A DNA stretch of 53,268 bases from Escherichia phage Ecp_YSF, in sequence record OR327751.1, one strand, 5' to 3'. A model generated the notes under the pieces. It had not been told where the DNA came from. It saw only the letters and a list, made by a program, of their open reading frames with translations, and made no database searches. The translations under genes were made by a program, and so were the position numbers. This document shows positions 37,027 through 52,255 of the stretch, piece after piece (positions within the stretch are counted from its first letter, which is position 1; each line of letters begins with the position of its first letter).

Positions 37027-37049
37027 TTGTGATATTAGTTGGTTGTGAA
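37027..37049 (+). promoter_or_regulatory. phage RNA polymerase promoter P1
   Basis: Core ATTAGTTGGTTGTGAA matches the family consensus at 15 of 16 positions. Lies 67 nt upstream of the RNA polymerase ATG. Confidence 0.65.
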
Positions 37050-37115
37050 TTGTGTAATGGCTACGCTATTATAATCCGTTTCAGTTAAATCATACACAAT
37101 CTTGGAGACTTACAA

Positions 37116-39056
37116 ATGATTACTATCACCACTCAAACTATCAAATCTGTTGTTCCTGCTATCACTGCTCTGGTATACCGTGCCAAAGAGAAGCAGAACT
37201 ATATGCAGCCTCAGACTTGTGCTATTGCTGCCCTAGCCATATTCAAGATGATGACGTCTTTCACTCGTGATGACGTTGTTCCTGCCATTGCGATGGTTGA
37301 GCTGGCTTCTGCTTCTATTGCTGATGCCAACCGCTACAACAACGATTTGAAAGCAATGCACTATGTTGACCCAGCTATCAACCTCATTGGTTTGGCTAAG
37401 CACTTTGGCTTCATCACCATGAACGAAGACAAGTCATTCCAGCAAACTGACACATGGGTTGAACTGGTTACAACCAAAGACACAGCAGTGCCATTCACTG
37501 AGCGTGTTACATCTGAATCTCGTCGCAAGCCTTTCGTTAAAGGTGGCAAAGTTAAGCCATCCAAAACTCTGAAAGCTGCAATCGAATTCCTGCAAGATAC
37601 TGAGTACCATGTGGAGACTGAGATGGTTCGCATCATCCAGTCCATGCTTGAGCAACGTACTTATGGTGGCTTGCAGATGCCAGAAGCAATCCAAACTGAA
37701 CTCCATGTTTGGAACAATGCTGTAGCAATGATGAATCAGGATAAGCTGTATTCTGACTACTTTGCTGATAACCGTGGTCGTCTGTATCATGTAGCATGTG
37801 CTGGTCCTAACCCACAATCCTCTGACTTTGCTCGTTGCTTGTATTCTCACAATGTTGAGAACATCGTTAAGAAGTTTAACGAAGATGGTTCTACTACCAT
37901 TGCATACAACATGTTCATGGCAGAGCTGGAAGATATTTCCGGTGGTGAATGGTGCAGTGCTAAGCGTTTAACTTATGTTGCTCAGAATCCAGCTGGTTCA
38001 CTTGCTCGCATGATGAACATGCCTAAAGCTGAGCGTCCTTCTAAGCCATTCACTTATGTTCGTCTGGCTCTGGATTGGTTCAAGTTTGAGACTACAGGTG
38101 AATGCGATTCTCGTGTAGGCTTTGGCTTAGATGCTAAATGTTCTGGTACTCAATATCTGGCATTCATTGCTGGTAACATGGAAATGGCTCGTGCAACAGG
38201 TCTGGTTGATTCTGAGACTAAAGCATCTGACCCATACCAGTTGAGTCTTCGTGAACTGTTGAAGCTGCTGGACAAGTCTTCAATGAAACCATCTCCTGAA
38301 ATTATGGATGAATTCTTGAATCCGAAAGCTGGTCGTAAGTTTATCAAAACTCCATACATGGCTATCCAATATGGTGGTGGTAAAGCTGCACTAACTGGTT
38401 CTTCTGACTTTATCTCCTACATGACAGAAGCTCTCCAGATTCCTATGGAGAAAGCTGAGGCATTTGCTGAACTGTGTGTAGAAGCAATCCATAACGCATT
38501 GGGTGCTAAGATTAACATGTTCATTGAGAAAGCTGCTGATGCTGCATACAACCGTTGTGTTGAACTTGGTAAAGAGTACATCACATACCGTCACACTGAT
38601 GGTCAGGTTGTAATGAAGCCTTGCTTCCCATCTCGTGAAATCTGTGAGGCATTCAGCATTCGTGTTGACTCCCAAACTCGTGTTATCTTTGGTCAGATTC
38701 AGGAGAATAAGCCTTGGACCATTCGTGAATCCAATCCAACTAAAGAAGAATTCAAGCGTACTTTCGTTGTTAACTACATTCAAGGTATTGACGCACTGGT
38801 TGCTCGTACTGTTGCAGTTAAAGCTAAAGAAGCTGGTCTTCGTGGCTTTACTTCAATTCACGATTGTTTCCGTTGCTGCTTAGCTGATGCTCCACGTATG
38901 ATGGAAGTTATTCGTGCAGCATATGTTGAAATCTTCGTAACCAACAATCAATTCGAGAATCTGTCTAAGCAACTCGGTGGCATTCAGATGTATCATGAGA
39001 ACATCGTAACCGAAGAGCTTCTGATGAGCGAACACGCTTACTACTTCTGTCAATAA
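37116..39056 (+). CDS. single-subunit DNA-directed RNA polymerase (T7-like, compact, 646 aa)
   Basis: Motif A-like GLDAKCSGTQYLA, motif B-like KFIKTPYMAIQYGGG, motif C FTSIHDCF. RBS GGAG upstream. Confidence 0.9.
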   Translation: MITITTQTIKSVVPAITALVYRAKEKQNYMQPQTCAIAALAIFKMMTSFTRDDVVPAIAMVELASASIADANRYNNDLKAMHYVDPAINLIGLAKHFGFITMNEDKSFQQTDTWVELVTTKDTAVPFTERVTSESRRKPFVKGGKVKPSKTLKAAIEFLQDTEYHVETEMVRIIQSMLEQRTYGGLQMPEAIQTELHVWNNAVAMMNQDKLYSDYFADNRGRLYHVACAGPNPQSSDFARCLYSHNVENIVKKFNEDGSTTIAYNMFMAELEDISGGEWCSAKRLTYVAQNPAGSLARMMNMPKAERPSKPFTYVRLALDWFKFETTGECDSRVGFGLDAKCSGTQYLAFIAGNMEMARATGLVDSETKASDPYQLSLRELLKLLDKSSMKPSPEIMDEFLNPKAGRKFIKTPYMAIQYGGGKAALTGSSDFISYMTEALQIPMEKAEAFAELCVEAIHNALGAKINMFIEKAADAAYNRCVELGKEYITYRHTDGQVVMKPCFPSREICEAFSIRVDSQTRVIFGQIQENKPWTIRESNPTKEEFKRTFVVNYIQGIDALVARTVAVKAKEAGLRGFTSIHDCFRCCLADAPRMMEVIRAAYVEIFVTNNQFENLSKQLGGIQMYHENIVTEELLMSEHAYYFCQ

Positions 39057-39097
39057 CATTAATTGGGTCAAGGATGACCACAAACTTGGAGACTACA

Positions 39098-39298
39098 ATG
39101 AATACCATGCAAATCAATCAAATCGAAAACTGTTTCAATCCTCATCACACCTGTGACATGAGTGATTTATCTCGTCCTACGGTGGAGGAGACTAAAGACT
39201 TCTTAGAATTGTTATCAGAATATAAGCAAGAGTCGCATGTATTATTGCACGCATTCTTGCATAATTCTGGATTCTTTGATACAGAAATACCGTTCTGA
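39098..39298 (+). CDS. small acidic protein ending in ..FFDTEIPF (66 aa)
   Basis: ATG 39098 lies 6 nt after GGAG (39088-39091). The ORF-track start ATG 39074 has no spaced RBS. Confidence 0.55.
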   Translation: MNTMQINQIENCFNPHHTCDMSDLSRPTVEETKDFLELLSEYKQESHVLLHAFLHNSGFFDTEIPF

Positions 39299-39303
39299 TA
39301 CTT

Positions 39304-39329
39304 GGGAGCTTCGGCTCCCTATTTTTGTT
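39304..39329 (+). terminator. strong rho-independent terminator after the RNA polymerase operon
   Basis: GGGAGC-TTCG-GCTCCC followed by TATTTTTGTT. Confidence 0.85.
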
Positions 39330-39367
39330 CTAATTAATCTTAGAGCTGGCTTCAATATTGTAGCCAG

Positions 39368-39390
39368 TTGTAACATTAGTTGGATGTGAA
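39368..39390 (+). promoter_or_regulatory. phage RNA polymerase promoter P2
   Basis: Core ATTAGTTGGATGTGAA matches at 16 of 16 positions. The hairpin AGCTGGC..GCCAGTT lies immediately upstream. Confidence 0.7.
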
Positions 39391-39633
39391 GTAACAGAAT
39401 ACGGAGAAGTATTCCGCATGTCATGTTGAAATCATTCTAGAAACATTTCAGCATGTCAACTAAACATACAGCGTTGTAATGATGTGGCAATCATTGAACT
39501 CCCTGTCTTTGGCCGGACAAAGTTCCAGCAACCATGTGTGAAGTAGGAATATCATTCGAAACTGTTCTTCAAATAAACATGACTTATCCCTAAAGAAGCT
39601 GGGACAGCTCATGTAGTACCAGCATGTTCAATT

Positions 39634-39661
39634 GTGACAATATTGCTCCATCTCCTATTAT
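39634..39661 (+). promoter_or_regulatory. possible sigma70-type early promoter
   Basis: GTGACA (39634-39639), a 16-nt spacer, then TATTAT (39656-39661). Confidence 0.35.
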
Positions 39662-40058
39662 AAAGGCCCACCCACAAGCCGGGAGATAACTTTGGTAATA
39701 TTGGAACTTTTGGACATGCTTCTTTCTTTCAATCAGAATTCGAAAGAAGAGAAGAGTCGGAGCAAAGCCGCGAAACTAATCCCGTAGCCCGCCCCGATTT
39801 TGAGCAACAAATATTGTGACAATTTTGTCGCAGTATGGCATGTAAATATTGCTACAAATTGGCATGTTGGAATGTGGCAGAATTGTTAGAGGACTAATCC
39901 CCTCGAAGATACAATCGTCTACCAATCTGGCATGTTATTTTTGTAACAGTATTTGTGCCAATTTCGCATGTATTAGCTGTATCAGTATTAACCCAATATT
40001 CTTGCAACCCGCATGAATACTGGCTTCCAGCCAAGCGAAGGCTTTATCATCGCATGTA

Positions 40059-40075
40059 AATATTGTGACAATATT
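40059..40075. promoter_or_regulatory. perfect 17-bp palindrome AATATTGTGACAATATT (operator-like)
   Basis: Read directly. Related sites lie at 39629-39645, 39810-39826, 39845-39860, 39937-39953 and 40207-40221. Confidence 0.6.
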
Positions 40076-40112
40076 GGGATAAAACCCTTTATTTAATTAG
40101 TTTTATTATGCT

Positions 40113-40136
40113 GTACATGGTCGGTTTTCCGTACCT
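40113..40136 (+). repeat. 24-nt element GTACATGGTCGGT-N5-GTACCT (copy 2)
   Basis: Matches 36628-36651. Confidence 0.6.
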
Positions 40137-40262
40137 GCTTGCTCCAATCTTAATGTGCCAAATACGTTAAGTATGGGAGTAAACCTGTAATTAATGGTGC
40201 ATGTTTAATTGTGACAAAATTCGTCTATTTGGCAGATGAATTAGTTGCAATTAAGCATGTTC

Positions 40263-40285
40263 ATTTATCATTAGTTGCATGTGAA
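40263..40285 (+). promoter_or_regulatory. phage RNA polymerase promoter P3
   Basis: Core ATTAGTTGCATGTGAA matches at 15 of 16 positions. A weaker copy, ATTAGTTGCAATTAAG, lies at 40240-40255. Confidence 0.6.
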
Positions 40286-40484
40286 TAAGACCAAATCTCT
40301 GTAAATTCTGCCGAAATTGTGTGACAGATTTTAGAGAGATTATGTCTCCAAGCTAATCATTGCAGTTTTTCGACACTTTGTGTGTCACATATAGCCTGTG
40401 AAAAACGTGTGGTATATTGCTGGATTGCGACGCGCCCACCAGACTAGGAAGTCACTGACGGCGGCACACACAGGAATACTATAT

Positions 40485-40555
40485 AACTCCCTACAACTTT
40501 AAGGTGGATTGAGGTAAGACAAGACCTCCACAATCGTTCTGTAGGGAGTTCTTTT
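40485..40555 (+). promoter_or_regulatory. structured leader element (11-bp basal stem plus T-run) just upstream of the first early gene
   Basis: AACTCCCTACA (40485-40495) pairs with TGTAGGGAGTT (40540-40550), followed by CTTTT. Confidence 0.35.
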
Positions 40556-40571
40556 AACTCAGGAGAATAAA

Positions 40572-40790
40572 ATGACTCGTTTTAAAGATTTGGTAGATGG
40601 TGCAATCTTCTTTACGCGTGGTGGGGAACATCTGCAAAAGGTTTTGGAAGATGACATTAATGTAAATGCTGTATTCGTTGGTGATTCTAACATTGGTGTT
40701 TTATTAAATGACAATGAAAGGACTTTTACCGAGGAGGAGTTTAAAGAAATCTCAGCCTCTGATTTAGTTCAAGAGCCAATTGAAGTTTAA
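40572..40790 (+). CDS. early hypothetical protein (72 aa)
   Basis: RBS AGGAG upstream of the ATG. Confidence 0.65.
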   Translation: MTRFKDLVDGAIFFTRGGEHLQKVLEDDINVNAVFVGDSNIGVLLNDNERTFTEEEFKEISASDLVQEPIEV

Positions 40791-40833
40791 TGCGTGGGAG
40801 GGGGAGTAAACCCTCCAAATTTGGAGAGCAGAA

Positions 40834-41064
40834 ATGAATTATGCACTGTATTGTTATTTAAACAAGCAAGGCTTTGTTAAGCACGCCCTAGTTAACATTA
40901 AAACTAAGGAAGTATTATTGGCCGACCAATCAATTGTTGATTTCAGATTGGTATGGAAGAAAGCAATGCATCCTGGACATGTTTGGGAAACAATTCAGTT
41001 GGATAAGCACCACAAAATTGTGGCAACTGCTACTCGTCCAGACCATATTCTACCAAGAGGTTAA
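40834..41064 (+). CDS. early hypothetical protein (76 aa)
   Basis: RBS GGAGAG. Confidence 0.6.
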   Translation: MNYALYCYLNKQGFVKHALVNIKTKEVLLADQSIVDFRLVWKKAMHPGHVWETIQLDKHHKIVATATRPDHILPRG

Positions 41065-41066
41065 TC

Positions 41067-41255
41067 ATGGACTTCATCGTCTACTTTAAGTTAAATGGTG
41101 TGGAGCAAAGATTGTACTTCAATTCTTTACTTCGTCTGCAACAGTGGGCGGAGAAGTTTGTTGGGTATGACTTTGAATACATCAACGCATGTACACCTGA
41201 CGAACATGAGGAAATCGTGTTCAGTTCATTGAGCCAAATTCTGGAGGCAAAATGA
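41067..41255 (+). CDS. early hypothetical protein (62 aa)
   Basis: Tightly packed ORF with RBS AGAGG. Confidence 0.6.
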   Translation: MDFIVYFKLNGVEQRLYFNSLLRLQQWAEKFVGYDFEYINACTPDEHEEIVFSSLSQILEAK

Positions 41256-41500
41256 CGCAGTTTAAATTGAAGGCCGACTTAATAGAGTTGGCCTCTTATG
41301 AAGAAAAGATTGAGTTCATACAAGAGCGTCTTGTTGTCAACTTTAATAATTGGATACACCTTCCAGTAAGTGATGTAGTTAAAGAAGTTAAAAATGATTT
41401 CGGCATCGAAATCACAAAAAGACAATTCAATAAAGATGTTATGACTGACCGAATCATGGACAGTTTGATTAACAACTTTATGTCCTACAAAGGTATGTGA
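41252..41500 (+). CDS. early hypothetical protein (82 aa)
   Basis: ATGA overlap with the upstream gene. Confidence 0.6.
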   Translation: MTQFKLKADLIELASYEEKIEFIQERLVVNFNNWIHLPVSDVVKEVKNDFGIEITKRQFNKDVMTDRIMDSLINNFMSYKGM

Positions 41501-41502
41501 TA

Positions 41503-41676
41503 ATGAACGACCAGCAATTCAACACATTCATGCAGCAAATTAATCATCAAGAATTGATGGACACTCTCAAAGGCAAGAAGCCAGTCGAACGTCAATATCG
41601 TAAAATTGATAATTATATGCCAACCATTATTGCATGTGTTGGATTTCTAATTGTTCTCTACTTCCTGGTGAAATAG
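41503..41676 (+). CDS. small membrane protein (57 aa, C-terminal TM; not in the ORF track)
   Basis: My own translation: MNDQQFNTFMQQ...PTIIACVGFLIVLYFLVK. It fills the gap exactly. Confidence 0.45.
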   Translation: MNDQQFNTFMQQINHQELMDTLKGKKPVERQYRKIDNYMPTIIACVGFLIVLYFLVK

Positions 41677-41760
41677 ATGGATATTGTAAAGAAACTAGTA
41701 TTCTGTATTATGATGTTCCCACTTGTGCTACTTGTTGTTGGCGCATTCATGTACTTTTAA
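41677..41760 (+). CDS. possible 27-aa hydrophobic peptide
   Basis: MDIVKKLVFCIMMFPLVLLVVGAFMYF. The ATG abuts the preceding stop codon. Confidence 0.25.
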   Translation: MDIVKKLVFCIMMFPLVLLVVGAFMYF

Positions 41761-41773
41761 TGCCGGAGTTATT

Positions 41774-42037
41774 ATGGCTACCAGAACAGGCATGATGATT
41801 GTCCCAAGCCGTAATAACTCTTTAAGCGGCTTTACACCATATAAAATCTATGAAGTGATTTCTGGCACTGGTGAAGCAAACCTGTCAGAAGTTGCTTTGA
41901 AGTTGGGCCGTATGGTCCATTCCGAAATCTCCTGTAACGTAGTTGATGATGAAGGTAAAATCCGTTTTGTAACAATGGATTTCTTTCGTGAATTTAACCT
42001 CAAATCTGAGATAGGTGTTTTATATCATGAAATTTAA
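41774..42037 (+). CDS. early small protein, paralog family member (87 aa)
   Basis: ATG 41774 follows GGAG. The ORF-track start is 41723. Confidence 0.6.
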   Translation: MATRTGMMIVPSRNNSLSGFTPYKIYEVISGTGEANLSEVALKLGRMVHSEISCNVVDDEGKIRFVTMDFFREFNLKSEIGVLYHEI

Positions 42038-42254
42038 ATGTGTTGCTTCAACCAAAGATTATGTTCCAGTTGGCTTCATCGTTGAGGGTGAAGCTATCTC
42101 GCCTTTGGAATTTAAAGTGACTAAATCTGCTGAGAATGTGTCTCCAGCATTTCGTAAAGGTGCTGTAGTGCCTATGAATGGTGCATTCTGGACATGGCAG
42201 CGTGACCATGAAGCAGAATTTGCAGATATTTGTGAACAAGGGTTATTGCAATGA
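42027..42254 (+). CDS. early small protein, paralog family member (75 aa)
   Basis: Begins MKFKCVAST.., similar to the next gene's MTKFKCVKST... Confidence 0.55.
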   Translation: MKFKCVASTKDYVPVGFIVEGEAISPLEFKVTKSAENVSPAFRKGAVVPMNGAFWTWQRDHEAEFADICEQGLLQ

Positions 42255-42481
42255 CAAAGTTTAAGTGCGTGAAATCGACCTCTTCATCTGAATACTCTCC
42301 GAAAGTTGGAGATGTGATTGAGGGGAGGATTATGCACGTAGAGCGGAGAGGCAAAATCGAGCCTCGCATACTCCTTTCAAAAGTCAGTGACCGTAAAGAT
42401 GCCAATGGCAATCCATACTTTGGTGAAGGAGAAAATATTCCTTTAGAGGGTGGAATCTGGTCCTGGGAAGAAGTTAAATAA
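42251..42481 (+). CDS. early small protein, paralog family member (76 aa)
   Basis: ATGA overlap with the upstream gene. Shares the KFKCV / G.V.EG / W.W pattern. Confidence 0.6.
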   Translation: MTKFKCVKSTSSSEYSPKVGDVIEGRIMHVERRGKIEPRILLSKVSDRKDANGNPYFGEGENIPLEGGIWSWEEVK

Positions 42482-42544
42482 TTTCCTCAACCATTCTTAT
42501 AATGAGAGTGGTTGCTGAATATTATTAATTAACTTGGAGCATTT

Positions 42545-42835
42545 ATGAAACAACGTACTCGTTTACAGCGTGACCCCGCCACAGGCCGCTTGTTACCAGC
42601 ATATTTGAAAGTTGGTGACTTAGTTTACACTCGTGACTTTGCTTTTGATATTTGCCCAAGCAAAGCATATGAAGTTCTCGCCACCAGCTTGTCTGGTCCT
42701 AAAGTAATATTTGGTGCTCTTGAGCCAATCCAGTTAACTGGAACTCAGTTTGTCATTAAAGATGAATCTGGTTGCAATCGTATCTTCAATCTCGAAGGTG
42801 GATTATCCAAATGGGAGAAGGTGAAGCGTGGGTAA
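42545..42835 (+). CDS. early small protein, paralog family member (96 aa)
   Basis: RBS GGAG. Confidence 0.6.
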   Translation: MKQRTRLQRDPATGRLLPAYLKVGDLVYTRDFAFDICPSKAYEVLATSLSGPKVIFGALEPIQLTGTQFVIKDESGCNRIFNLEGGLSKWEKVKRG

Positions 42836-43061
42836 GAATTATATCGAAATGTTTAAACGACTGACCGTCAATGGGCAGGAGTTCTTGCTGAATGATGCAA
42901 GGCAAGATATCGAATTGTCTGACAAGTATTCTTATTTTGACCAAAAGACAATTGTGAAGTGGACATTCTCTTACATGTCCGCCAATACTCCCGGAGAAAC
43001 GCTTGTGATTAGCGGCTCTGGTGATTCCGTATTATCCGCTTTGGAGAAACTAAAGCAATGA
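42828..43061 (+). CDS. early hypothetical protein (77 aa)
   Basis: GTG start follows GGGAGAAGG. Confidence 0.5.
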   Translation: MGKNYIEMFKRLTVNGQEFLLNDARQDIELSDKYSYFDQKTIVKWTFSYMSANTPGETLVISGSGDSVLSALEKLKQ

Positions 43062-43345
43062 ACAAGAATTCAGTCTTACGTTATGTTGGTAAAACAAATT
43101 ACAACTTTACCAACGGTAAGAAATACAAAATCGTCGCAGGTCGTGGTGACGGGGTTCCTCGCAACAACGGTACACTCGGTGCGTATATTCAATCTCCTTT
43201 GGGTTTTGTCGTTAATGACGATAACCGCAATTTATGTTATCGCACATTCTCCGATAATTGGGAACTTGTGAAAGATTCTGGTGAAGTTAGTTGGTATAAA
43301 CCTGAATCAAACATTGACCCAATTCCTGTATCGAAGGTGATGTGA
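43058..43345 (+). CDS. early small protein, paralog family member (95 aa)
   Basis: ATGA overlap with the upstream gene. Confidence 0.6.
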   Translation: MNKNSVLRYVGKTNYNFTNGKKYKIVAGRGDGVPRNNGTLGAYIQSPLGFVVNDDNRNLCYRTFSDNWELVKDSGEVSWYKPESNIDPIPVSKVM

Positions 43346-43470
43346 GGATTGAATATTAAATACCTAATACTGACACTTACTATTAGCGTTGTTATACTTA
43401 CGATTGTTATAGGCTTTGCCAACCTGCTGCTATTACAAGCAGGAATATAAACTGGCGCGTTAAATTAACA

Positions 43471-43493
43471 AGGAGCATTCATTGAGTGTTCCT
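43471..43493 (+). terminator. conserved hairpin immediately upstream of promoter P4 (terminator or processing site)
   Basis: AGGAGCA-TTCATTGAG-TGTTCCT. Covaries with the hairpin at 44071-44092. Confidence 0.4.
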
Positions 43494-43498
43494 GATTA

Positions 43499-43521
43499 AT
43501 CTGACATTAGTTGCGTGTGAA
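43499..43521 (+). promoter_or_regulatory. phage RNA polymerase promoter P4
   Basis: Core ATTAGTTGCGTGTGAA matches at 14 of 16 positions. Confidence 0.6.
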
Positions 43522-43542
43522 TAACAACTTTTGGAGGTATTT

Positions 43543-44064
43543 ATGTTTTACACTGGTGTGGGAAGTCGTGAAACTCCCGAGCATATTTGCGAACTGCTGA
43601 CTAAAGTAGCTTCCAAACTGGCCAGGCTTGGCTGGGTAGTTCGTACGGGAGGTGCTCAAGGTGCTGACGAAGCATTCCTGGCTGGCTGCAACGGAAGGAC
43701 AGAGAACTTTATACCTTGGAATGGTTTTGGAAGTTATGGTGGCGTAGTACCGGACCTGAATCGAAATTGGGAATACCTGCAAAGTGTTGAAAACGTAAAC
43801 CCGCTAATTCACAAGAAAGAAACCAGAAACCTCGACAAATACAGAGGATTTTGGAAACTGCAGGCACGAAATGTTAGTCAGGTACTTGGGCTTAACTTAG
43901 ACACTCCATCCAAGTTCTGTATCTTGTACGCTCTGACAACATCAACTGGTGTGAGCGGAGGCACCAACACTGCATATCAGGTTGCAGTGCAGTCTGGAAT
44001 ACCTTGTTTTAACCTGTTTGACCCTGCTGTAGTAGCAAGGTTTGAGAAATTTGTATCTGAGTGA
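43543..44064 (+). CDS. DprA/Smf-like Rossmann (SLOG superfamily) domain protein
   Basis: YTGVGSRETP...LARLGWVVRTGGAQGADEAF matches the GSR...sGGa.G.D..a pattern. ATG 43543 follows GGAGG. Confidence 0.5.
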   Translation: MFYTGVGSRETPEHICELLTKVASKLARLGWVVRTGGAQGADEAFLAGCNGRTENFIPWNGFGSYGGVVPDLNRNWEYLQSVENVNPLIHKKETRNLDKYRGFWKLQARNVSQVLGLNLDTPSKFCILYALTTSTGVSGGTNTAYQVAVQSGIPCFNLFDPAVVARFEKFVSE

Positions 44065-44070
44065 TTATCA

Positions 44071-44092
44071 GGGTGCATTTACGAGTGTACCC
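44071..44092 (+). terminator. conserved hairpin immediately upstream of promoter P5
   Basis: GGGTGCA-TTTACGAG-TGTACCC. Confidence 0.4.
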
Positions 44093-44095
44093 GAA

Positions 44096-44118
44096 TAATC
44101 CAATTAGTTGGATATGAG
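44096..44118 (+). promoter_or_regulatory. phage RNA polymerase promoter P5
   Basis: Core ATTAGTTGGATATGAG matches at 14 of 16 positions. Confidence 0.6.
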
Positions 44119-45417: not shown

Positions 45418-45443
45418 GAGGCCATTCCACTTCGAGTGGCCTC
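45418..45443 (+). terminator. putative terminator hairpin
   Basis: GAGGCCATTC-CACTTC-GAGTGGCCTC (10 bp) followed by GATTAATTATT. Confidence 0.5.
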
Positions 45444-45463
45444 GATTAATTATTGGAGGATTT

Positions 45464-45595
45464 ATGTGGGATATTTATCTTGAAGGTGTTGACGAGCCAA
45501 TTTCAACACTTAATACACAATTTATTGCAGTTGGGTGTGCAATTCTTTATAAAGGTAAGTTACACACTGTATCTAAAATCGTTCAGAGGTTTTAA
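45464..45595 (+). CDS. 43-aa hypothetical protein (not in the ORF track)
   Basis: A strong GGAGG lies 4 nt upstream of the ATG. Translation begins MWDIYLEGVDEPIS... Confidence 0.5.
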   Translation: MWDIYLEGVDEPISTLNTQFIAVGCAILYKGKLHTVSKIVQRF

Positions 45596-45597
45596 TT

Positions 45598-45957
45598 GTG
45601 AAACTTAAGTACATTATTATTTATACTTTAGCATTAATTGTTTTGGCATTCTTTAGCTTTGAGTCTAAAGCGTCAACAAAGAACTTCAAATGTGGAGCGT
45701 ATACTCTTGTAGTTGATAACATCGGAGACAGCCAACCTCTGATTGCGTCAATAATTCCTGAAGCTGGTGTTTGGATAGAGGTTCCAAGTGATGAACCCAA
45801 TCCTGCAACAGTTTTATTTTACAACATTAAAGATAGCAGGTTTGCTGCACTGTTTATAAATCATGAAGATAAACTTGTGCTACAGATTTTCCGTGATGGG
45901 GATTTCCTCAAAGCAAACTATCCTGTCTTGTCCACCAGCTGTACGGAGAAGAAATGA
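45598..45957 (+). CDS. secreted/periplasmic hypothetical protein (signal peptide)
   Basis: N-terminus MKLKYIIIYTLALIVLAFFSFESKAS. Confidence 0.55.
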   Translation: MKLKYIIIYTLALIVLAFFSFESKASTKNFKCGAYTLVVDNIGDSQPLIASIIPEAGVWIEVPSDEPNPATVLFYNIKDSRFAALFINHEDKLVLQIFRDGDFLKANYPVLSTSCTEKK

Positions 45958-46187
45958 CTTCAACAGAATTTATTATTGATGGGGTTCAATACCTGCTGGA
46001 ATCCAATTGCGAGTATCGCCATTGGGCAGTAATTCACGACCGAGTTGTAAAATACTTGGAACGTGTAGGGAAGGAAACTGCTAAATCTATGCTGTTTGAG
46101 GCAACAGTTCTTGGAACAACCTCAATCAATAAAGAATTAGTGTCTTTCAAATTAACCATTCACCCTAGTGGGAATAGCTTTCAATGA
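45954..46187 (+). CDS. hypothetical protein (77 aa)
   Basis: ATGA overlap with the upstream gene. Confidence 0.55.
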   Translation: MTSTEFIIDGVQYLLESNCEYRHWAVIHDRVVKYLERVGKETAKSMLFEATVLGTTSINKELVSFKLTIHPSGNSFQ

Positions 46188-46459
46188 TTTCAATAGACCA
46201 AGTTCCAGTTGAACTAAGTAAGGCAAAAGGTAAGCTAGATGATGCCAAATCTGACTTATCTACCTTTGATTTAAATGCTCCGGCCGATAAAGTTAAGGTT
46301 TTCATCGACTGTATTGATGGATGGGTGCTTATTGAGCATGGAGTCCTTCGAGCATTACTTGTTGATGAAGTTGCCAAGGCTCAGGAAGCATTTGACGAGA
46401 TTGATAACCTCAACACACTGTTAAACAACACTTTAAGCGATGCGCTAAAGGATAAGTAA
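46184..46459 (+). CDS. hypothetical protein (91 aa)
   Basis: ATGA overlap with the upstream gene. Confidence 0.55.
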   Translation: MISIDQVPVELSKAKGKLDDAKSDLSTFDLNAPADKVKVFIDCIDGWVLIEHGVLRALLVDEVAKAQEAFDEIDNLNTLLNNTLSDALKDK

Positions 46460-46854
46460 TGAATGTTAAGCTCGGTCAACGTTCTTTGGACCGACTTAAG
46501 GGAGTAAATCCTTCATTAGTTGCAGTTTTCAAACGTGCATGTGAAACGATGCCTTTTGATGTGACTGTTTTGGAAGGTTTACGCTCTTATGAACGTCAAC
46601 AAGAACTATTAAAACAGGGTGCAACCAAAGTTTCAGTTAGCCGACACATGTCAGGCAACGCTTTGGACATTGCGCCGTACCCAATTGACTGGAATGACCT
46701 TGAACGATTCCAAATTGTGGCTGAACACATGTTCAAAGCCGCAGAAGAGCTTGGAGTTGTTATTCGCTGGGGCGGAACATGGGAACGAACCTTCACTAAG
46801 CCAGTGAAATGGGCCAAGTTCCTTGATGCACCGCACTTCGAACTTCCGGCATAA
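46459..46854 (+). CDS. peptidase M15 (VanY / T5 L-alanyl-D-glutamate endopeptidase-like) peptidoglycan hydrolase
   Basis: Zinc-ligand pattern SRHMSGNALDIAP...DAPHFE (H..D...H). Confidence 0.8.
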   Translation: MNVKLGQRSLDRLKGVNPSLVAVFKRACETMPFDVTVLEGLRSYERQQELLKQGATKVSVSRHMSGNALDIAPYPIDWNDLERFQIVAEHMFKAAEELGVVIRWGGTWERTFTKPVKWAKFLDAPHFELPA

Positions 46855-46862
46855 CTTCATCA

Positions 46863-47153
46863 ATGGAGCATCCGATGGAATATCAGGAAATACCGAAAGA
46901 GTTAGAGCGTATGCAATCTCGCACATATCGTGCAGGGGCAGAACTCCACCAGCATTTGTCAAACTATGTGAACGATTCTCGAAATCTCAGGTCCGAAATT
47001 GCGGTTGATGGTTGTTGCTATCTGGTAACATACGACGAGAAGACCGCCATACTAGACATGCTAGTAAAGGGTGGAAAAGAGCGAATTGAACAGCTCAAAA
47101 TCCTTAATGCGGAACTTCAAGGCATGTGGGAGAAACTCAATGCAAAACGATAA
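46863..47153 (+). CDS. hypothetical coiled-coil protein
   Basis: ATG 46875 follows GGAG and is an alternative start. Confidence 0.5.
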   Translation: MEHPMEYQEIPKELERMQSRTYRAGAELHQHLSNYVNDSRNLRSEIAVDGCCYLVTYDEKTAILDMLVKGGKERIEQLKILNAELQGMWEKLNAKR

Positions 47154-47688
47154 CATTGCTCAAGCAGTAGAACAGCTTAAGTCCTGGCGTAGAGATGAAA
47201 CCTTATTGGTTCGTTTCTACACAGGCGAAACTAATTCTGAATTTGTAGATGCGTGGATTGATGGCCTGTCTTGGCGTCATTATGATTTCGACATGCGGGA
47301 GTATTTGCATGAAGAATATGGCATCGAGTATCCAGAATCCGGTACATACGACGTAATTGAATCGAATGAGGAAGATGTTACCGAAGTTTGCTTTGTTGAC
47401 GGGCTGTTCAGCATTCGTAAATATGACAAGTTCAACGAACTGCTTGTTGATACTGACTTGGACGTAATTCTTGCGGCATTCCGTAGCGGTGATATCGACA
47501 TTTTCACTGTAGACGATTTGAATGACAAGGTTATTTGCCGATGTGATTCAATTGCGGATTATTTCCAGCAATATGATGGCATAGAAGTTCCAGACCATCT
47601 TCGTCCATATATCGATTGGGATGCAGTTGCGAGAGATTACGGAAGTGATTACACTTTCTCCGAAGGGATACTATTCTCAAATGCGTGA
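47140..47688 (+). CDS. ArdA-like antirestriction protein
   Basis: Very acidic. The C-terminal VPDHLRPYIDWDAVARDYGSDYTFSEGILF matches the ArdA P....YxDyeAyARD....f pattern. ATG 47140 follows GGGAGA. Confidence 0.65.
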   Translation: MQNDNIAQAVEQLKSWRRDETLLVRFYTGETNSEFVDAWIDGLSWRHYDFDMREYLHEEYGIEYPESGTYDVIESNEEDVTEVCFVDGLFSIRKYDKFNELLVDTDLDVILAAFRSGDIDIFTVDDLNDKVICRCDSIADYFQQYDGIEVPDHLRPYIDWDAVARDYGSDYTFSEGILFSNA

Positions 47689-47920
47689 TTTAAATATCGC
47701 TGAACTTGAGGCTGGATTGATTGTCCACCACCAGCCTCGAAACACTTTCTATCGTATTCTTGGGCCTACAAAGATTAAAACTCATTGCGGAAGTTGGGTA
47801 GATGGGTTTGCTTACCAAGAAGTTAAGAAGTACGGGGACCATACTTTCTTAAGTATTGATTCTTCTACTATCTACACACGACCGAAAGAGTTATTTGACT
47901 CAGATTGGAAAACGCTATAG
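47681..47920 (+). CDS. DUF1653-like small protein
   Basis: Pattern HHQPRNTFYRILGP...YTRPKELF. Confidence 0.5.
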   Translation: MRDLNIAELEAGLIVHHQPRNTFYRILGPTKIKTHCGSWVDGFAYQEVKKYGDHTFLSIDSSTIYTRPKELFDSDWKTL

Positions 47921-47943
47921 TTCCAGGCGGGTTTCTTCGAAGT

Positions 47944-47971
47944 GCCAAGCGGGTTTTGTACTCGCATTGGC
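47944..47971 (+). terminator. hairpin between the early gene and promoter P6
   Basis: GCCAAGCGGG-TTTTGTA-CTCGC(A)TTGGC: 10 bp with one bulge. Confidence 0.35.
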
Positions 47972-47984
47972 CTTCGGCTTTAGT

Positions 47985-48007
47985 CTGAAACATTAGTGGG
48001 ATTTGAT
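47985..48007 (+). promoter_or_regulatory. phage RNA polymerase promoter P6
   Basis: CTGAAACATTAGTGGGATTTGAT. Confidence 0.5.
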
Positions 48008-48124
48008 TCTGACCACTTAGGGAAGAAAGGCATTATACACTTATCGCCAAATGGGTGTCAAGCACTTTCTTCATTTATTTAATTTATTCTTATTATTCTT
48101 TTTGTTTGGAATATTGGAATAATC

Positions 48125-48147
48125 CTGAAACATTAGTTGGAATTGGA
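48125..48147 (+). promoter_or_regulatory. phage RNA polymerase promoter P7
   Basis: CTGAAACATTAGTTGGAATTGGA, which abuts ATG 48148. Confidence 0.55.
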
Positions 48148-48324
48148 ATGATTAAAGTTCTGGAAAAAGATAACGTAACCTTCGCACGTCAGTGTGGAGG
48201 ATGTTTCTCTGTAGTATCTTACGTGTTCTCTGACTTAAAGATGTACACAGGAAAGAATGACCGAGGATACTTCGCATACAGATTCATTACTTGTCCTGTT
48301 TGCAAGAAGAGTATTCGGCATTAG
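48148..48324 (+). CDS. zinc-ribbon protein (58 aa)
   Basis: CGGC...CPVC. The ORF-track start 48055 gives an AT-rich, low-complexity extension. Confidence 0.5.
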   Translation: MIKVLEKDNVTFARQCGGCFSVVSYVFSDLKMYTGKNDRGYFAYRFITCPVCKKSIRH

Positions 48325-48335
48325 TTGGAATTGAA
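48313..48335 (+). promoter_or_regulatory. phage RNA polymerase promoter P8
   Basis: Core ATTAGTTGGAATTGAA matches at 14 of 16 positions. It overlaps the stop codon of the preceding gene. Confidence 0.6.
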
Positions 48336-48348
48336 ACAACATCAGATA

Positions 48349-48420
48349 AGAGCTTTGTAACTAGGTAGTCCGTCTGGTACCAAGACGTGTGAGAACGTTC
48401 GATTCGTTCTACAAAGCTCT
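48349..48420 (+). ncRNA. tRNA-like RNA element TL1 (acceptor/T-arm intact, reduced D arm, non-decoding anticodon-like loop)
   Basis: 11-bp stem 48349-59/48410-20. T arm GAACG-TTCGATT-CGTTC (48393-48409). Arm CGTCT-GGTACCA-AGACG (48371-48387). Lies 14 nt downstream of P8. Confidence 0.45.
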
Positions 48421-48969
48421 TTTCGATGGAATGTTTCCATCATATACATTTATCTTTTAACATAGGCCAAAGGGCCGGAATACTTATTCGCAGAAAAGCT
48501 ATTCACTTGTTATAGGCGATGTATTGGGATGAATTAGAACTAAATAAGCAAGCTGTTAGGGCTGAATAATTAGAGGGTTGTGCCTCATGCTTATGTTAGT
48601 CATTCGAAAATAGGTTTGTGCCACAAGCTGCTGGTGCTCTGAGGAAGTCGGACAAACAGGGCTTAGAGTGGCATAATCCGCACAAAACCGCGCCACCAGC
48701 TATGCCAAAGCAGGTGGATTGGGTGAATGTATTGGGAAGGGTTGCAAAGCCTCTGCGAGCACGGTATCGCGTATAATAAGTGACGTCTGCGCTGCGTGTA
48801 TCGCACCCTAACGGGAGTAACCCTTCGCCAATGCAGTTATCCAGAATTGACACAAACGGTAGGCAGTGGCCCGATTTTCGGCCTTCCTGTGCTACCCTGT
48901 GGCCTGTTTCATGGGCCAAAAGATGAGAAGAGAAGTCACAAACCCCGAATCGAAAATTGGAGAGTTCCT

Positions 48970-49260
48970 ATGATTCGCAAACATTCTATCCGGGTAATTA
49001 AGGCCCGTAATATTCACACAGGAGAGATGGAAGCATTCGCTTTCTTGGGTGGAAAGTTTTATTTATTTGGTTGGGAAGGAAGTGATTTAAAGTTTGAATT
49101 CTTTATGAATATGTACTCGATTAAAGAGTTGTTAAACAATGCGACCTACGGACCATCCTACATGGAATATTGTTTCGGCAAGCCAGTCGAGCATCTTCTG
49201 TCCAAATCTTTCATTTACAGCTGGACAACAAACCAACCAGTTTACGGAGTTCCATTTTGA
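48970..49260 (+). CDS. hypothetical protein (96 aa)
   Basis: ATG 48970 lies 7 nt after GGAG. The ORF-track start 48796 extends into ORF-free structured sequence. Confidence 0.55.
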   Translation: MIRKHSIRVIKARNIHTGEMEAFAFLGGKFYLFGWEGSDLKFEFFMNMYSIKELLNNATYGPSYMEYCFGKPVEHLLSKSFIYSWTTNQPVYGVPF

Positions 49261-49547
49261 ACTTACAAGACAAATCTAAAGAAGAGTTGATTGAGATTAT
49301 CCAGAAAGAGCACGAACTCGCTGGCATCACAATCAACTATGAACTCCGGGCAATGCAAGCTGTTGCTTTGGGTCATGGTCTAATGGCTACACTCATTCAT
49401 GCCAAGAATGTGTTAGGCATTGACAACGAAAAATACCAAATTCTGGAGAAAGCTGCGCAAGAGCGGATTTCGCAGTGCTTGGTGACATTAGTTGATTTGG
49501 GAATCGACGCAGAAACTGCGAACAAACGTATCCTACAAGGCCACTAA
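49257..49547 (+). CDS. hypothetical protein (96 aa)
   Basis: TTG 49257 shows TTGA coupling with the upstream stop, and GGAG (49246-49249) lies 7 nt upstream. Confidence 0.5.
   Translation: MNLQDKSKEELIEIIQKEHELAGITINYELRAMQAVALGHGLMATLIHAKNVLGIDNEKYQILEKAAQERISQCLVTLVDLGIDAETANKRILQGH
49480..49502 (+). promoter_or_regulatory. weak promoter-like site inside coding sequence
   Basis: GTGACATTAGTTGATTTGGGA. The core matches at 11 of 16 positions. Confidence 0.25.
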
Positions 49548-49548
49548 A

Positions 49549-50223
49549 ATGTCTTATCATGATGATGACAAAGAGATTGCACTATCAACGTGTAAGCAAT
49601 GGCTCAATGATAATGATGCCGTCTATCTTGCCAAGGAAGATGTTATCATTATGTGGGTCCATTTTAATCCAGAATCGAAGCGCGGTGAGTGGCAACGCTA
49701 CAAGATGAAAGAGGCTTGTCGCATAATTAAAGCCACACGCGCTGGCTTCTCTGCTATGAAATACATCAAGCCAGAGATGCTGATGCTTGCTGCACAGGAA
49801 GAAGAACGTGCATATAAGCAAGCTGTTAAATCTCGTTCAACTGTTCCTCCAGAGTTCTTTAATTTGGAGCGCGCTGGACACTTCAACAATTTAGAAATGT
49901 TGACACTGTGCCTGTTGCAAGAATTAGTTGGAAGAGGACAAAACATTGAAGCTGTTTGTCTTGGAGAACTTATGAAAGAGTTGTTCTCGGCAAAGGGCTT
50001 TGCTGTGCCAAATCGAACTTTACGCTGGAAATTGTTGCGAGCAGTCGCTCAAGAAGCTGGTGTAGTTGTTCGTGACAGAACAAACCGACTCACTGTAACT
50101 GGAGTTGGGCGTTTTGTAGCAATCCAGATTGAGGGTTATGACGAATCAATCATCACTGAACTCACTGTCGATGAGACAAAGGATTTAGTAAATAAAACAC
50201 TAGAACGATTCAATAGATACTGA
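49549..50223 (+). CDS. hypothetical protein (224 aa)
   Basis: First ATG after the upstream stop codon. Confidence 0.55.
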   Translation: MSYHDDDKEIALSTCKQWLNDNDAVYLAKEDVIIMWVHFNPESKRGEWQRYKMKEACRIIKATRAGFSAMKYIKPEMLMLAAQEEERAYKQAVKSRSTVPPEFFNLERAGHFNNLEMLTLCLLQELVGRGQNIEAVCLGELMKELFSAKGFAVPNRTLRWKLLRAVAQEAGVVVRDRTNRLTVTGVGRFVAIQIEGYDESIITELTVDETKDLVNKTLERFNRY

Positions 50224-50247
50224 GTCGTTTGACGAATCAGAGCAGTT

Positions 50248-50270
50248 CTGAAACATTAGTTGGATGTGGA
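50248..50270 (+). promoter_or_regulatory. phage RNA polymerase promoter P10
   Basis: CTGAAACATTAGTTGGATGTGGA, with the core matching at 15 of 16 positions. Hairpin at 50220-50240 just upstream. Confidence 0.7.
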
Positions 50271-50346
50271 AAGAGAAAGGCTCTTTAATTTTATCTAAGT
50301 CACGTCATCGTGGCGTGCAAAACTATTCAATATAAGGTATATACAA

Positions 50347-50685
50347 ATGGCTAAGATTGTAACCGTAACTCAGTACGAAGCTAACGATGGTTCCCTGTTC
50401 CTGACCGAAGCAGAGTGTAATGCACACGACTTCAAACTGGAAAACGGTGCTAAAATTGAGAAAGCTGCCGAAGCGTACCTGAACACCGTTGGCGCTATCG
50501 ACCGTTCTCGCTCCATGCAGAAGAACACCATCGAGCAGTTCCTGGCATTCTACCTGCCGTGGGTTGAAGCTGGTGAGCCGGAAGTTGAGCGTACTAAGTT
50601 CGATACTCCGAAAGAAGCCAAAGTTGCTGACGCAAGTGTTGCCGAAGCTGCCGAAGCTGCTGTTGAAGAAGCTCCGGTATTCTAA
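50347..50685 (+). CDS. abundantly expressed acidic protein of unknown function (112 aa; tail ..EEAPVF)
   Basis: Strongly biased, capsid-like codon usage. Has its own promoter, P10. Confidence 0.65.
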   Translation: MAKIVTVTQYEANDGSLFLTEAECNAHDFKLENGAKIEKAAEAYLNTVGAIDRSRSMQKNTIEQFLAFYLPWVEAGEPEVERTKFDTPKEAKVADASVAEAAEAAVEEAPVF

Positions 50686-51583
50686 GTTGCCGATGGCAAA
50701 CTTGAGAGACTAAGCTAAATCGATCTGGCATGCACTGGGAGATCTGCCAGTGCTGCCTTGAATCCCATTCCAGAGTGAGTGGGCTTCAATGAGCATTCTT
50801 GTGATTAGAGTTGGGAGGTAGGCCGATGCCCAAGCTCGTGGCCCAGACAAGAGTGTTCATTGAAGTAGTTTTCTGAGTCTTACGACGGGCCTAAACTGCC
50901 TGGAGTTATTGCGACTGTTTTATTCATTTAAAATAAATGCAAATGATTCTGAAATGCGAGTTGCGGCTTAATTAAATTTAAGTCCTCTCCGTGGTCTTCC
51001 AATCCCACGTAACCAAATTTGGCGCATTGTGGCTTCGAGATGTGATTAATAAATCGGAGCAATAATTAATTTGTATTCTGCGATGCAAAGCAGGCTTAAG
51101 TCCTCCAGTGCGCGTGGGGATGTGACAGAGTACAAACTTAATTATGCAGTTGGATATTTCTAGAGGACGGACGAGCACACTGGAATGTCTTCAATTGGTT
51201 TAGTGTGAGAAGCTATGCCAATTTGAAACGTAACTCCTTGGGGAAGTGCTCCTCTGGATTTCCCTCCACACAGGAATCTCAAGCCTGTGGCAGCGACTTC
51301 GAAGCTGCACTGCGTAACCTAATTCACCCTAAAGTGAGTTGCCCTGAGCATGGAAATAAACTGCTCTAACCGATGGTATCTACAAAGGTAGATTAAATCA
51401 GGTTGCCTGTTGGTACTTGGGTTCAACACCTGCTTGCACTCGCAAAGTAGTGCCTCGTACCTGAGATGAAGTGAGTCGGGACCATCAATCCCACGTTATG
51501 TCAAAACACAGTAGGCGACTCACAGATTCTACAAGCCTCGCAGTTCGGGAAAACCTGCGTTATCAAAACCCCCCCCTCAATTT

Positions 51584-51679
51584 GGACGAGTAGCTCAGAA
51601 GGTCTGCTCCAGAGCTTAGTCAGGTAGAGCAATCTGTTCGACAGATGTGTCGTTGGTTCGAATCCAACCTCGTCCACCA
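51584..51679 (+). tRNA. aberrant tRNA (probable anticodon UCG, Arg) with a 19-21-nt hairpin insertion in the D loop and encoded CCA
   Basis: Acceptor GGACGAG/CTCGTCC. T arm GTTGG-TTCGAAT-CCAAC. D stem GCTC/GAGC enclosing the extra hairpin 51599-51617. The anticodon arm is only 15 nt. Confidence 0.6.
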
Positions 51680-51706
51680 ACTCTCAATAATAAACATGGA
51701 GTCCTT

Positions 51707-51847
51707 ATGGACATTGATGCACTAGACAATTTGGACTTCGGTGCTGCCGAAGAAGCAATTGAAGAACTCAAGAAAAAGCAGGACGAAGAAGCAATCGTTC
51801 CTGGTGCTGGCGATAACGACTGCTCAAGTGGTGCGTGCGCCATCTAA
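51707..51847 (+). CDS. 46-aa acidic peptide with a Cys-rich end (..DCSSGACAI)
   Basis: ATG 51707 lies 5 nt after GGAG. The ORF-track start 51647 lies inside the tRNA. Confidence 0.4.
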   Translation: MDIDALDNLDFGAAEEAIEELKKKQDEEAIVPGAGDNDCSSGACAI

Positions 51848-51855
51848 GGTGATTT

Positions 51856-52092
51856 ATGCAACAGCTTAAATCAATAATTCTTGGCGTCCTGACTGCATTT
51901 GGTATTATCATTGCAGTGTTCCTCAAAGGCAAAAGCTCAGGCAAAGCCGAGGAGCGTCAGGAAGCCACAGAGAAGCAACTAGATTCATTAAAAGAATCTA
52001 TCGAGATTAAATCGCATGTTCAGAAAGAAGTGTCTAGCAGTTCTGATAGCAATGTCGATAGTGAGTTGCTCTCAAAGTGGGTTCGTAAGTGA
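51856..52092 (+). CDS. i-spanin (Rz-like)
   Basis: N-terminal TM segment IILGVLTAFGIIIAVFL followed by charged coiled-coil sequence. Confidence 0.6.
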   Translation: MQQLKSIILGVLTAFGIIIAVFLKGKSSGKAEERQEATEKQLDSLKESIEIKSHVQKEVSSSSDSNVDSELLSKWVRK

Positions 52093-52225
52093 TTATTGCT
52101 TAATTGCACAACCAATCTATTTGGATGTTGCAGAAGTGAAAATCTTATCACGCGAAACCAAAACACAGATTTTAGTCCACAATGAAACGTGGGCACAAAA
52201 GTGTTCGAAACTTACCCGACAGTGA
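52016..52225 (+). CDS. o-spanin (Rz1-like lipoprotein), overlapping the i-spanin gene in another frame
   Basis: Signal sequence plus lipobox LAVLIAMSIVSC. Confidence 0.6.
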   Translation: MFRKKCLAVLIAMSIVSCSQSGFVSDYCLIAQPIYLDVAEVKILSRETKTQILVHNETWAQKCSKLTRQ

Positions 52226-52239
52226 GTGAACATGGCCTA

Positions 52240-52255
52240 GCTAGTTGGTGGTGTA
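52240..52255 (+). promoter_or_regulatory. weak promoter-like site P11
   Basis: GCTAGTTGGTGGTGTA matches the core at 11 of 16 positions. Confidence 0.3.

Follow-up and report, generated by a model that had tools for sequence, protein, structure and literature searches.

Genome context and gene layout

The window analysed here is sequence record OR327751.1 of Escherichia phage Ecp_YSF, a stretch of 53,268 bases that is the complete genome in a permuted orientation, and the subject of this study is a short motif repeated in its early region, which we interpret as the promoter family of the T7-like RNA polymerase encoded by the phage itself. Ecp_YSF is an E. coli myophage of the genus Carltongylesvirus, subfamily Cleopatravirinae, family Chaseviridae. 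Its early region is ~95% identical to that of Escherichia phage flopper and 88–94% identical to those of ST32, SA91KD, PO103-1, MLP1 and Yersinia phage PYps23T, all of which belong to the Chaseviridae/Cleopatravirinae and mostly to Carltongylesvirus. All plausible genes of the window lie on the + strand, with the replication genes at 0.5–10 kb, the terminase, head, tail and lysis genes at 10–36.5 kb, the polymerase gene at 37,116–39,056 and small early genes at 40.5–52 kb. In its true order the genome opens with the polymerase gene, so that the 37–52 kb region represents the left-hand, early part. No transfer RNA (tRNA) genes were detected in the window, whereas the early regions of phiEcoM-GJ1 (GJ1) and ST32 contain a tRNA-Arg. 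An Rfam scan of the whole window gave zero family matches, so the hairpins and the stretch free of open reading frames (ORFs) described below are not known RNA families.

The reading of this motif family as phage promoters is already known; it has been a public prediction since 2008 and is ordinary, not new. The GenBank record of GJ1 (NC_010106) annotates nine 'putative phage promoters', whose 20-mers (for example CGACATTAGTTGGATGTGAA) are this motif and which are reportedly a prediction of Jamalludeen et al. 2008 (Appl Environ Microbiol 74:516). The same phage-promoter annotation, with Jamalludeen et al. 2008 given as its source, appears in the record of SA91KD (vB_EcoM_SA91KD, OL960574), where the hairpins immediately 5' of the motif are marked as rho-independent terminators. 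Eight consensus promoters were also proposed for the polymerase of this phage group in the paper on Pectobacterium phage PP101 (PMC6989608). Prior annotators arrived independently at the same promoter reading as ours; our comparison with the GJ1 promoters is based on the GenBank annotations.

A repeated, oriented motif in the early region

The core of the motif is the 16-mer ATTAGTTGGATGTGAA, optionally preceded by a C. With up to three mismatches allowed, ten matches were found in the window against 0.78 expected, a number reached by none of 100 shuffled sequences. These strong sites, numbered P1–P10, start at 37034, 39375 (16/16), 40270, 43506, 44103, 47992, 48132, 48320, 49923 and 50255, all on the + strand. 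A weight matrix built from them, with a listing threshold of 8 bits, picks out further copies on the + strand (5110, 10218 and 24699, with 27356, 49487 and 1010 weaker still); on the − strand it gives a single marginal match, at 38752 within the polymerase gene. The preliminary description of the window had listed nine of the strong matches, all of which were recovered, and had missed 49923; among its weaker matches, 10218 and 49487 were found again, whereas 40240 is only a partial copy and 52240, which scores under the 8-bit threshold, was rejected. Its statement that all copies lie on the + strand holds in the two-strand scans apart from the marginal match at 38752, and the 5' extension CTGAAAC that it saw in several copies is present at 47992, 48132 and 50255, as well as at 5110. 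The copies had also been described as mostly intergenic and upstream of genes, and eight of the ten strong sites indeed fall in the 11% of the window outside generous ORF calls (binomial P ~8e-7).

The information content was analysed over 31 aligned sites from four genera. The conserved block extends from −5 to +16 (~17–22 bp) and consists of a T at −5, CATTAGTTG, a variable patch and TG-A-A; directly past the motif the information content is at background, in a stretch rich in A. The motif is not a palindrome, and its ten strong and three weaker copies are all on the + strand, pointing along the genes. No conserved −10-like element was found at any fixed distance downstream in the 31 sites, and a sigma-70 promoter reading of the motif was rejected for this reason; sigma-70-like matches in the region are no commoner than in shuffled sequences.

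P1 (ATTAGTTGGTTGTGAA, 37034–37049) lies 66 nt 5' of the polymerase start codon. It is conserved in SA91KD, GJ1, flopper, TH53, ST32, 4HA13 and PA_03, and carries no promoter annotation in the GJ1 and SA91KD records. Behind the polymerase gene, the perfect copy P2 (39375–39390) is directed into a ~1.2-kb ORF-free, repeat-rich stretch, and P3 (ATTAGTTGCATGTGAA, 40270–40285) lies 286 nt 5' of the first early gene (40572). P4 (ATTAGTTGCGTGTGAA, 43506–43521) is located 21 nt 5' of the ATG (43543) of a DprA-like ORF of 173 amino acids (aa), and P5 (ATTAGTTGGATATGAG, 44103–44118) 71 nt 5' of the ssb gene (44190). P6 (CTGAAAC-ATTAGTGGGATTTGAT, 47992–48007) is followed by P7 (CTGAAAC-ATTAGTTGGAATTGGA, 48132–48147), which adjoins the ATG (48148) of a 58-aa ORF, and by P8 (ATTAGTTGGAATTGAA, 48320–48335), which overlaps the stop codon of that ORF. 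P9 (ATTAGTTGGAAGAGGA, 49923–49938) lies inside a 243-aa ORF (49492–50223) and is retained in 4HA13 and Y2, perhaps as an internal promoter or perhaps for its coding role alone. P10 (CTGAAAC-ATTAGTTGGATGTGGA, 50255–50270) lies 76 nt 5' of gene 50347. The weak copy CTGAAAC-ATTATTTGGAAGTGGT (5110–5125) is found in a small ORF behind the DNA polymerase gene, 139 nt 5' of gene 5265; TH28 has a similar copy, CATTATTTGGAAGTGAT, the likeness being one of sequence only, with its placement among genes not established.

The 58-aa ORF between P7 and P8 (48148–48324) encodes a zinc-ribbon-like CxxC...CPxC pattern, starts at the base directly 3' of P7 and terminates within the CATTAG of P8. A Pfam match is lacking, and the ORF is unannotated in the relatives examined. 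Judging from this arrangement, its messenger RNA (mRNA) would be almost leaderless if made from P7.

Further upstream, a sigma-70-like promoter (TTGACG-18-TATTAT, 36823–36852, + strand) is likely to be the site at which the host polymerase starts transcription of the polymerase gene, and the homologous site in GJ1 is annotated as a 'putative host sigma70 promoter'. It lies within three tandem 26-bp repeats (36759–36851; ATTGT..ATATT.A.GAGACT..A), which may form a small array of host promoters.

The phage RNA polymerase

The presumed reader of the motif is a 646-aa single-subunit, T7-like RNA polymerase encoded at 37116–39056 on the + strand. The protein matches Pfam PF00940 (E 3.7e-18), its AlphaFold2 model has a mean predicted local distance difference test score (pLDDT) of 91.7, and the best Foldseek matches of the model are T7 RNA polymerase (3e2e, E 6e-19) and mitochondrial RNA polymerases; a sequence search against solved structures gave no match, and a fold search was required. 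Across 62 homologues, D339 of motif A, K411 and Y419 of motif B and H582-D583 of motif C are invariant. The family match, the modelled T7 fold and the invariant catalytic motifs bear out the earlier assignment of a T7-like polymerase: this is a true enzyme of the T7 fold, its catalytic motifs intact. We take it to be ~240 aa shorter than T7 RNA polymerase, mainly at the N-terminus, with the motif A aspartate at 339 compared with what is presumably 537 in T7.

Homologues of this small polymerase were also seen on contigs that bear integrase genes and in records named as bacterial genomes, namely Hafnia alvei (4.8-Mb contig), Pseudomonas brenneri (6.3-Mb contig), Lelliottia and Symbiopectobacterium. 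This set, which comprises the loci L020 (18330–19304) and L022 (151–1035) and the proteins P0073, P0074, P0079, P0107 and P0116, suggests that temperate or integrated relatives carrying a T7-type polymerase may exist.

Conservation and drift across relatives

Syntenic sites in four genera carry the motif, in GJ1, SA91KD, flopper, TH53, TH28, ST32 and PYps23T as well as in the more distant 4HA13 (polymerase 76% identical), Y2 (71%) and Proteus phage PA_03 (66%, consensus ATTAGTTGAGTGTGAA); among the shared sites are those that flank the polymerase gene and those that precede ssb and the gp29 homologue. Below this range the sequence changes. A metagenomic relative with a polymerase 52% identical carries ATTAGTAGGYTTTGRA six times, and a relative at 44% identity carries ATTAGTTG-N-ATGGAGAATAA six times, with copies flanking the polymerase gene in both cases; a Vibrio chasevirus with a polymerase 35% identical has a different repeated candidate. 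The consensus is thus kept at 66–100% polymerase identity and has drifted at 52% and 44%. De novo counting of 12-mers was swamped by codon-bias words except in the window and 4HA13, and counting of longer words succeeded.

Phages of the other chasevirus subfamily lack the motif. In Aeromonas phage pAh6-C (~18850–32600), six + strand hairpins of the form GGCTC-TNC-GAGCC followed by AAAG occur from just 3' of the polymerase gene onwards, and in Vibrio phage VPs20 (2478–8258) there are four copies of CTCGCCCACTAGAATTTGGTA. Both the pAh6-C hairpin and CTCGCCCACTAGAATTTGGTA are candidate regulatory elements for the polymerases of those phages.

Hairpins upstream of the motif

At seven of 13 sites (P2, P3, P4, P5, P6, P10 and 24699) a hairpin ends 2–14 nt before the motif; those at P2, P4, P5, P6 and P10 had been reported in the preliminary description, and those before 40270 (P3) and 24699 are additional. 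Behind the polymerase gene and a 74-aa ORF, a canonical intrinsic-terminator hairpin, GGGAGCTTCGGCTCCC followed by TATTTTTGTT (39304–39319, + strand, as are all the hairpins described here), occupies a site whose equivalent is annotated as a terminator in SA91KD. It is followed by the hairpin 5 nt 5' of P2 (39344–39369), which has no U-tract; hairpins at this position have unrelated sequences in different phages, and those of GJ1 and SA91KD differ by compensatory changes. The long hairpin before P3 (40197–40262, −27.7 kcal/mol) ends 7 nt 5' of the motif and holds the partial motif copy 40240 in its 3' arm. The hairpin before P4 (43464–43500) consists of a 10-bp upper stem, a 2×2 internal loop and a 5-bp lower stem, without a U-tract, and the hairpin before P5 (44063–44100) is its paralogue. 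The hairpin 14 nt 5' of P6 (47937–47977, −23.6 kcal/mol) and the two hairpins before P10 (50203–50230 and 50237–50251), which lack a U-tract, are terminators in the SA91KD annotation.

The two compensatory changes and the conserved G-U pair previously noted between the P4 and P5 hairpins are present, and the comparison can be widened: the hairpin upstream of ssb occurs in three sequence versions, the P4 type, the P5 type and that of Erwinia phage Y2. On aligning the three, all 15 of the 15 pairs are formed in every version, five pairs are changed on both sides and two are conserved G-U pairs, while sliding the partners by 1–3 columns reduces pairing to 34–43%. The sample is small, comprising three independent sequence types, and an IMG/VR scan with the SSB protein gave seven loci, mostly from the same isolates. 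Since a conserved G-U pair would be an A-C mismatch on the other strand, the structure is selected in the + strand transcript, and the compensatory changes and conserved G-U pairs support the earlier proposal of a structure acting at the RNA level.

A G+C-rich stem-loop followed by a U-tract, which defines an intrinsic terminator, is found at 39304–39319 and at 24665–24688, and only these two hairpins have a clear U-tract behind them. Set against the imperfect duplex of ~20 bp with an internal loop that characterizes RNase III substrates, the P4 and P5 hairpins have 15–16 bp in two stems and a 2×2 loop. The hairpins without a U-tract may act as weak terminators, as pause sites for the phage enzyme, as RNase III-type processing sites or as protectors of 3' ends. 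A DNA hairpin promoter of the N4 type was rejected, as the hairpin accompanies only seven of 13 copies, its spacing varies from 2 to 14 nt and its G-U pairs are conserved.

Interpretation of the motif as the promoter of the phage polymerase

The placement and shape of the motif, its conservation and the fold of the encoded polymerase support the earlier suggestion that the copies form a promoter family for that enzyme, and on this comparative evidence (CTGAAA)CATTAGTTGGATGTGAA is very probably the promoter that the 646-aa T7-type RNA polymerase of the phage recognises. We infer that the polymerase binds the motif and that transcription probably starts at the G of the TG at core positions 13–14 or within the next few bases, because this TG is near-invariant in all lineages and conservation ends two bases later.

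That the motif is instead the site of a phage or host DNA-binding protein, such as an activator, a repressor or a sigma-like factor acting on the host polymerase to direct or block it, is very unlikely. In its favour, the TTGGAT within the motif bears a loose likeness to a −35 hexamer, and the genome has many small early genes without known function. Against it, a conserved −10-like element is lacking in 31 sites of four genera, and the motif is non-palindromic and strictly oriented; moreover, the motif changes in step with the divergence of the polymerase, and every relative examined has copies before and right behind the polymerase gene.

We consider it highly improbable that the motif acts in RNA, as a nuclease cleavage site or an element of the 5' untranslated region (UTR), read from long read-through transcripts, with hairpin and motif together forming a processing module instead of a terminator–promoter pair. 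In favour of this, the hairpins of Ecp_YSF clearly act in RNA, all copies are on the transcribed strand, and the intergenic regions of T7 have RNase III sites and phage promoters near one another. The spacing between motif and start codon, however, varies between 0 and 286 nt and no gene follows P2, which does not fit an element of translation or of the UTR; a sequence-specific, structure-free RNA site of 17 bp conserved across genera would be unusual, and the size and shape of the motif are typical of promoters of single-subunit polymerases.

Several observations weigh against recognition by the phage polymerase. The base following the core is variable, which makes the start site uncertain. 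P9, 5110 and 10218 lie within ORFs, where conservation may reflect coding sequence, and the late-region copies are weak; in the window, 5110 and 24699 carry a T in place of the otherwise conserved G5. Word counting gave no clear motif in two relatives ~40% identical in polymerase (L023 and L024), which leaves the drift series incomplete. About half of the motif copies have no hairpin, and most of the hairpins close to the motif (P2, P3, P4, P5 and P10) are followed by mixed sequence without a U-tract and so fall outside the usual definition of a terminator. In the searchable literature, no transcription-start mapping or in vitro transcription was found for any member of the family.

If the motif is the promoter of the phage polymerase, transcription might proceed as follows. 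The host polymerase would start at the sigma-70-like promoter near 36823 and give the first polymerase mRNA, after which the phage enzyme would initiate at P1, 5' of its own gene, in a positive feedback, and also at P2–P10, across the first ~16 kb when the genes are taken in their true order. Read-through along the single coding strand, together with the weaker copies 5110, 10218 and 24699, would serve the replication and structural genes. The hairpins 5' of many copies would fold in the preceding transcript and, through termination, pausing or processing, could set its 3' end or shield it, so that each intergenic module would close one transcription unit and open the next.

Candidate promoters in the late region

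The preliminary description found no strong copy at 10–36 kb, which is literally true; weaker copies at 10218 and 24699 are nevertheless conserved in relatives, and the late region is therefore not promoter-free in the sense that both are candidate weak promoters, which goes part of the way to explaining how late transcription is driven. The first (ATTAGTGGATTGTGAT, 10218–10233, + strand) lies 22 nt 5' of the probable terminase ATG (10256) and overlaps the 3' end of a 61-aa ORF; it is conserved in GJ1, flopper, TH53 and TH28, without a promoter annotation in the GJ1 and SA91KD records. The second (ATTATTTGAATATGTA, 24699–24714, + strand) lies in the gap that separates the 1223-aa tail gene from the baseplate-hub gene, and its positional homologue in GJ1 is 'putative phage promoter 9'; before it, just 3' of the tail gene, stands a terminator-like hairpin followed by CTTCTTT (24665–24688, + strand). 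As all genes are on one strand, read-through from upstream promoters into the late genes is also likely.

Genome ends, gene cassettes and the ORF-free stretch

The deposited genome of PYps23T has a terminal repeat of 2,339 bp that starts with CGTGAA inside P1 (GGA/CGTGAA) and ends with CATTAGTTGGA inside P2 (GGA/), so that its two boundaries fall at an identical motif position; in the window, P1 and P2 are 2,341 bp apart. The repeat of PYps23T was measured by polymerase chain reaction (PCR) and run-off sequencing (PMC8762354). The terminal repeats of Y2 (2,608 bp) and 4HA13 (3,120 bp) extend ~400 nt past P2, and that of Mangalitsa is 3,234 bp (PMC6753284). Genome ends at the motif were rejected as a general rule, as Y2, 4HA13 and Mangalitsa disagree with PYps23T. 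Although the PYps23T repeat spans exactly the interval from a point within P1 to a point within P2 and motif copies flank two insertion/deletion cassettes, the idea that the motif serves chiefly as a DNA site at which genome ends form or recombination occurs, with promoter activity secondary, is barely tenable, given that most copies lie far from the genome ends, that the repeats of Y2, 4HA13 and Mangalitsa begin ~125–200 nt before P1, that the boundaries in Y2 lack the motif, and that the PYps23T junction is possibly a PCR artefact between two near-identical motif copies.

The two cassettes have the same design. P4 and P5 with their hairpins (43464–44118) enclose the 173-aa DprA-like ORF, which has a weak Pfam match and is annotated in flopper; this ORF is present in flopper and ST32 and lacking in GJ1, SA91KD, TH53, TH28 and PYps23T, and the relatives without it have just one module, in which the upstream flank of P4 is joined to the downstream flank of P5 (GJ1 promoter 3). 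P7 and P8 (48132–48335) likewise enclose the 58-aa ORF, where GJ1 has a single hybrid copy, promoter 5, with the upstream flank of P7 and the downstream flank of P8. The presence of one hybrid module where the optional gene is absent indicates that the modules coincide with break points of gene gain or loss.

The stretch between P2 and P3 (39300–40570) comprises ~1.2 kb without an ORF and is gene-free in the annotations of relatives too. It contains GCATG(T) words every ~50–60 nt together with AATATTG(T)GACAA / CAATATTG words, and the same repeat (GCATGTAATATTGTGA, seven copies) recurs at the corresponding position in Proteus phage PA_03 as well as in metagenomic relatives whose polymerases are 55% and 44% identical. 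Some words are shared between the region 5' of the polymerase gene and the region 3.2–3.5 kb downstream, namely GTACATGGTCGG..GTACCT (36628–36687 and 40113–40136) and CCCAATATTGCTACAA (36569–36588 and 39810–40075); they lie near the terminal-repeat boundaries expected by analogy with 4HA13 and Mangalitsa.

The ORF-free stretch into which P2 points is conserved and lies inside or at the edge of the terminal repeat, and its location, right after the polymerase gene with the best promoter copy upstream of it, is reminiscent of what we take to be the setting of the T7 primary origin. It is doubtful, when the two ideas are taken jointly, that the hairpin–promoter modules are recombination joints for optional genes and that P2 is a polymerase-primed replication origin or end-processing element. 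If P2 had such a role, it would, by analogy, resemble the phi1.1A/B origin or phiOL of T7, and the P1-to-P2 repeat of PYps23T could be a real clue.

Significance

In conclusion, Ecp_YSF provides one more genome for a known promoter pattern, and the cross-genus conservation of the motif, its drift with the polymerase and the covariation of the hairpins, which this analysis adds, strengthen the prediction without changing it. If the prediction is confirmed by experiment, the motif would be the promoter of a naturally small (~640-aa) T7-type polymerase across the myovirus family Chaseviridae, with a possible use as an orthogonal transcription system, and a gap still listed as open in the ICTV profile would close.

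Comparison with known systems

The closest resemblance is to GJ1 and SA91KD, which share the same sequence family, nnACATTAGTTGGATGTGAA, and the same promoter interpretation. The copies in Ecp_YSF match the annotated GJ1 20-mers at homologous positions: P2, P3, P6, P9 and P10 correspond one-to-one to GJ1 promoters 1, 2, 4, 6 and 7, the pair P4/P5 corresponds to promoter 3, the pair P7/P8 to promoter 5, and 24699 to promoter 9. Ecp_YSF differs from GJ1 in having two duplicated modules, each around an extra ORF, and in lacking an exact counterpart of promoter 8, which lies in the homologue of the small gene that contains the weaker copy 5110 but at a different offset.

The promoters of the T7 group (T7, T3, SP6 and K11) are ~23 bp long and run from −17 to +6, a description that is said to go back to Dunn and Studier 1983 and later work. 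Like these, the motif of Ecp_YSF is compact, non-palindromic, oriented and present in multiple copies, and a single-subunit polymerase is encoded early in the same genome. Its 5' half, CATTAG, resembles what we take to be the corresponding sequences of K11 (AATTAG) and SP6 (ATTTAG), whereas the sequence is otherwise unrelated to the T7 group, the virus is a myovirus, and one copy precedes the polymerase gene itself. The distribution is also the reverse of that of the T7 class III promoters, as the best matches in Ecp_YSF cluster early and the late copies are the weakest.

The intergenic hairpins of T7-like phages comprise RNase III sites adjacent to promoters as well as the T-phi terminator. 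Ecp_YSF similarly has conserved RNA hairpins between genes beside its phage promoters, and the two stems and internal loop of the P4 and P5 hairpins are reminiscent of RNase III substrates; the hairpin of Ecp_YSF, however, lies upstream of the promoter and is thus part of the preceding transcript. The two modules that enclose optional genes, finally, recall the promoter–gene–terminator 'moron' unit reportedly described by Hendrix and colleagues.

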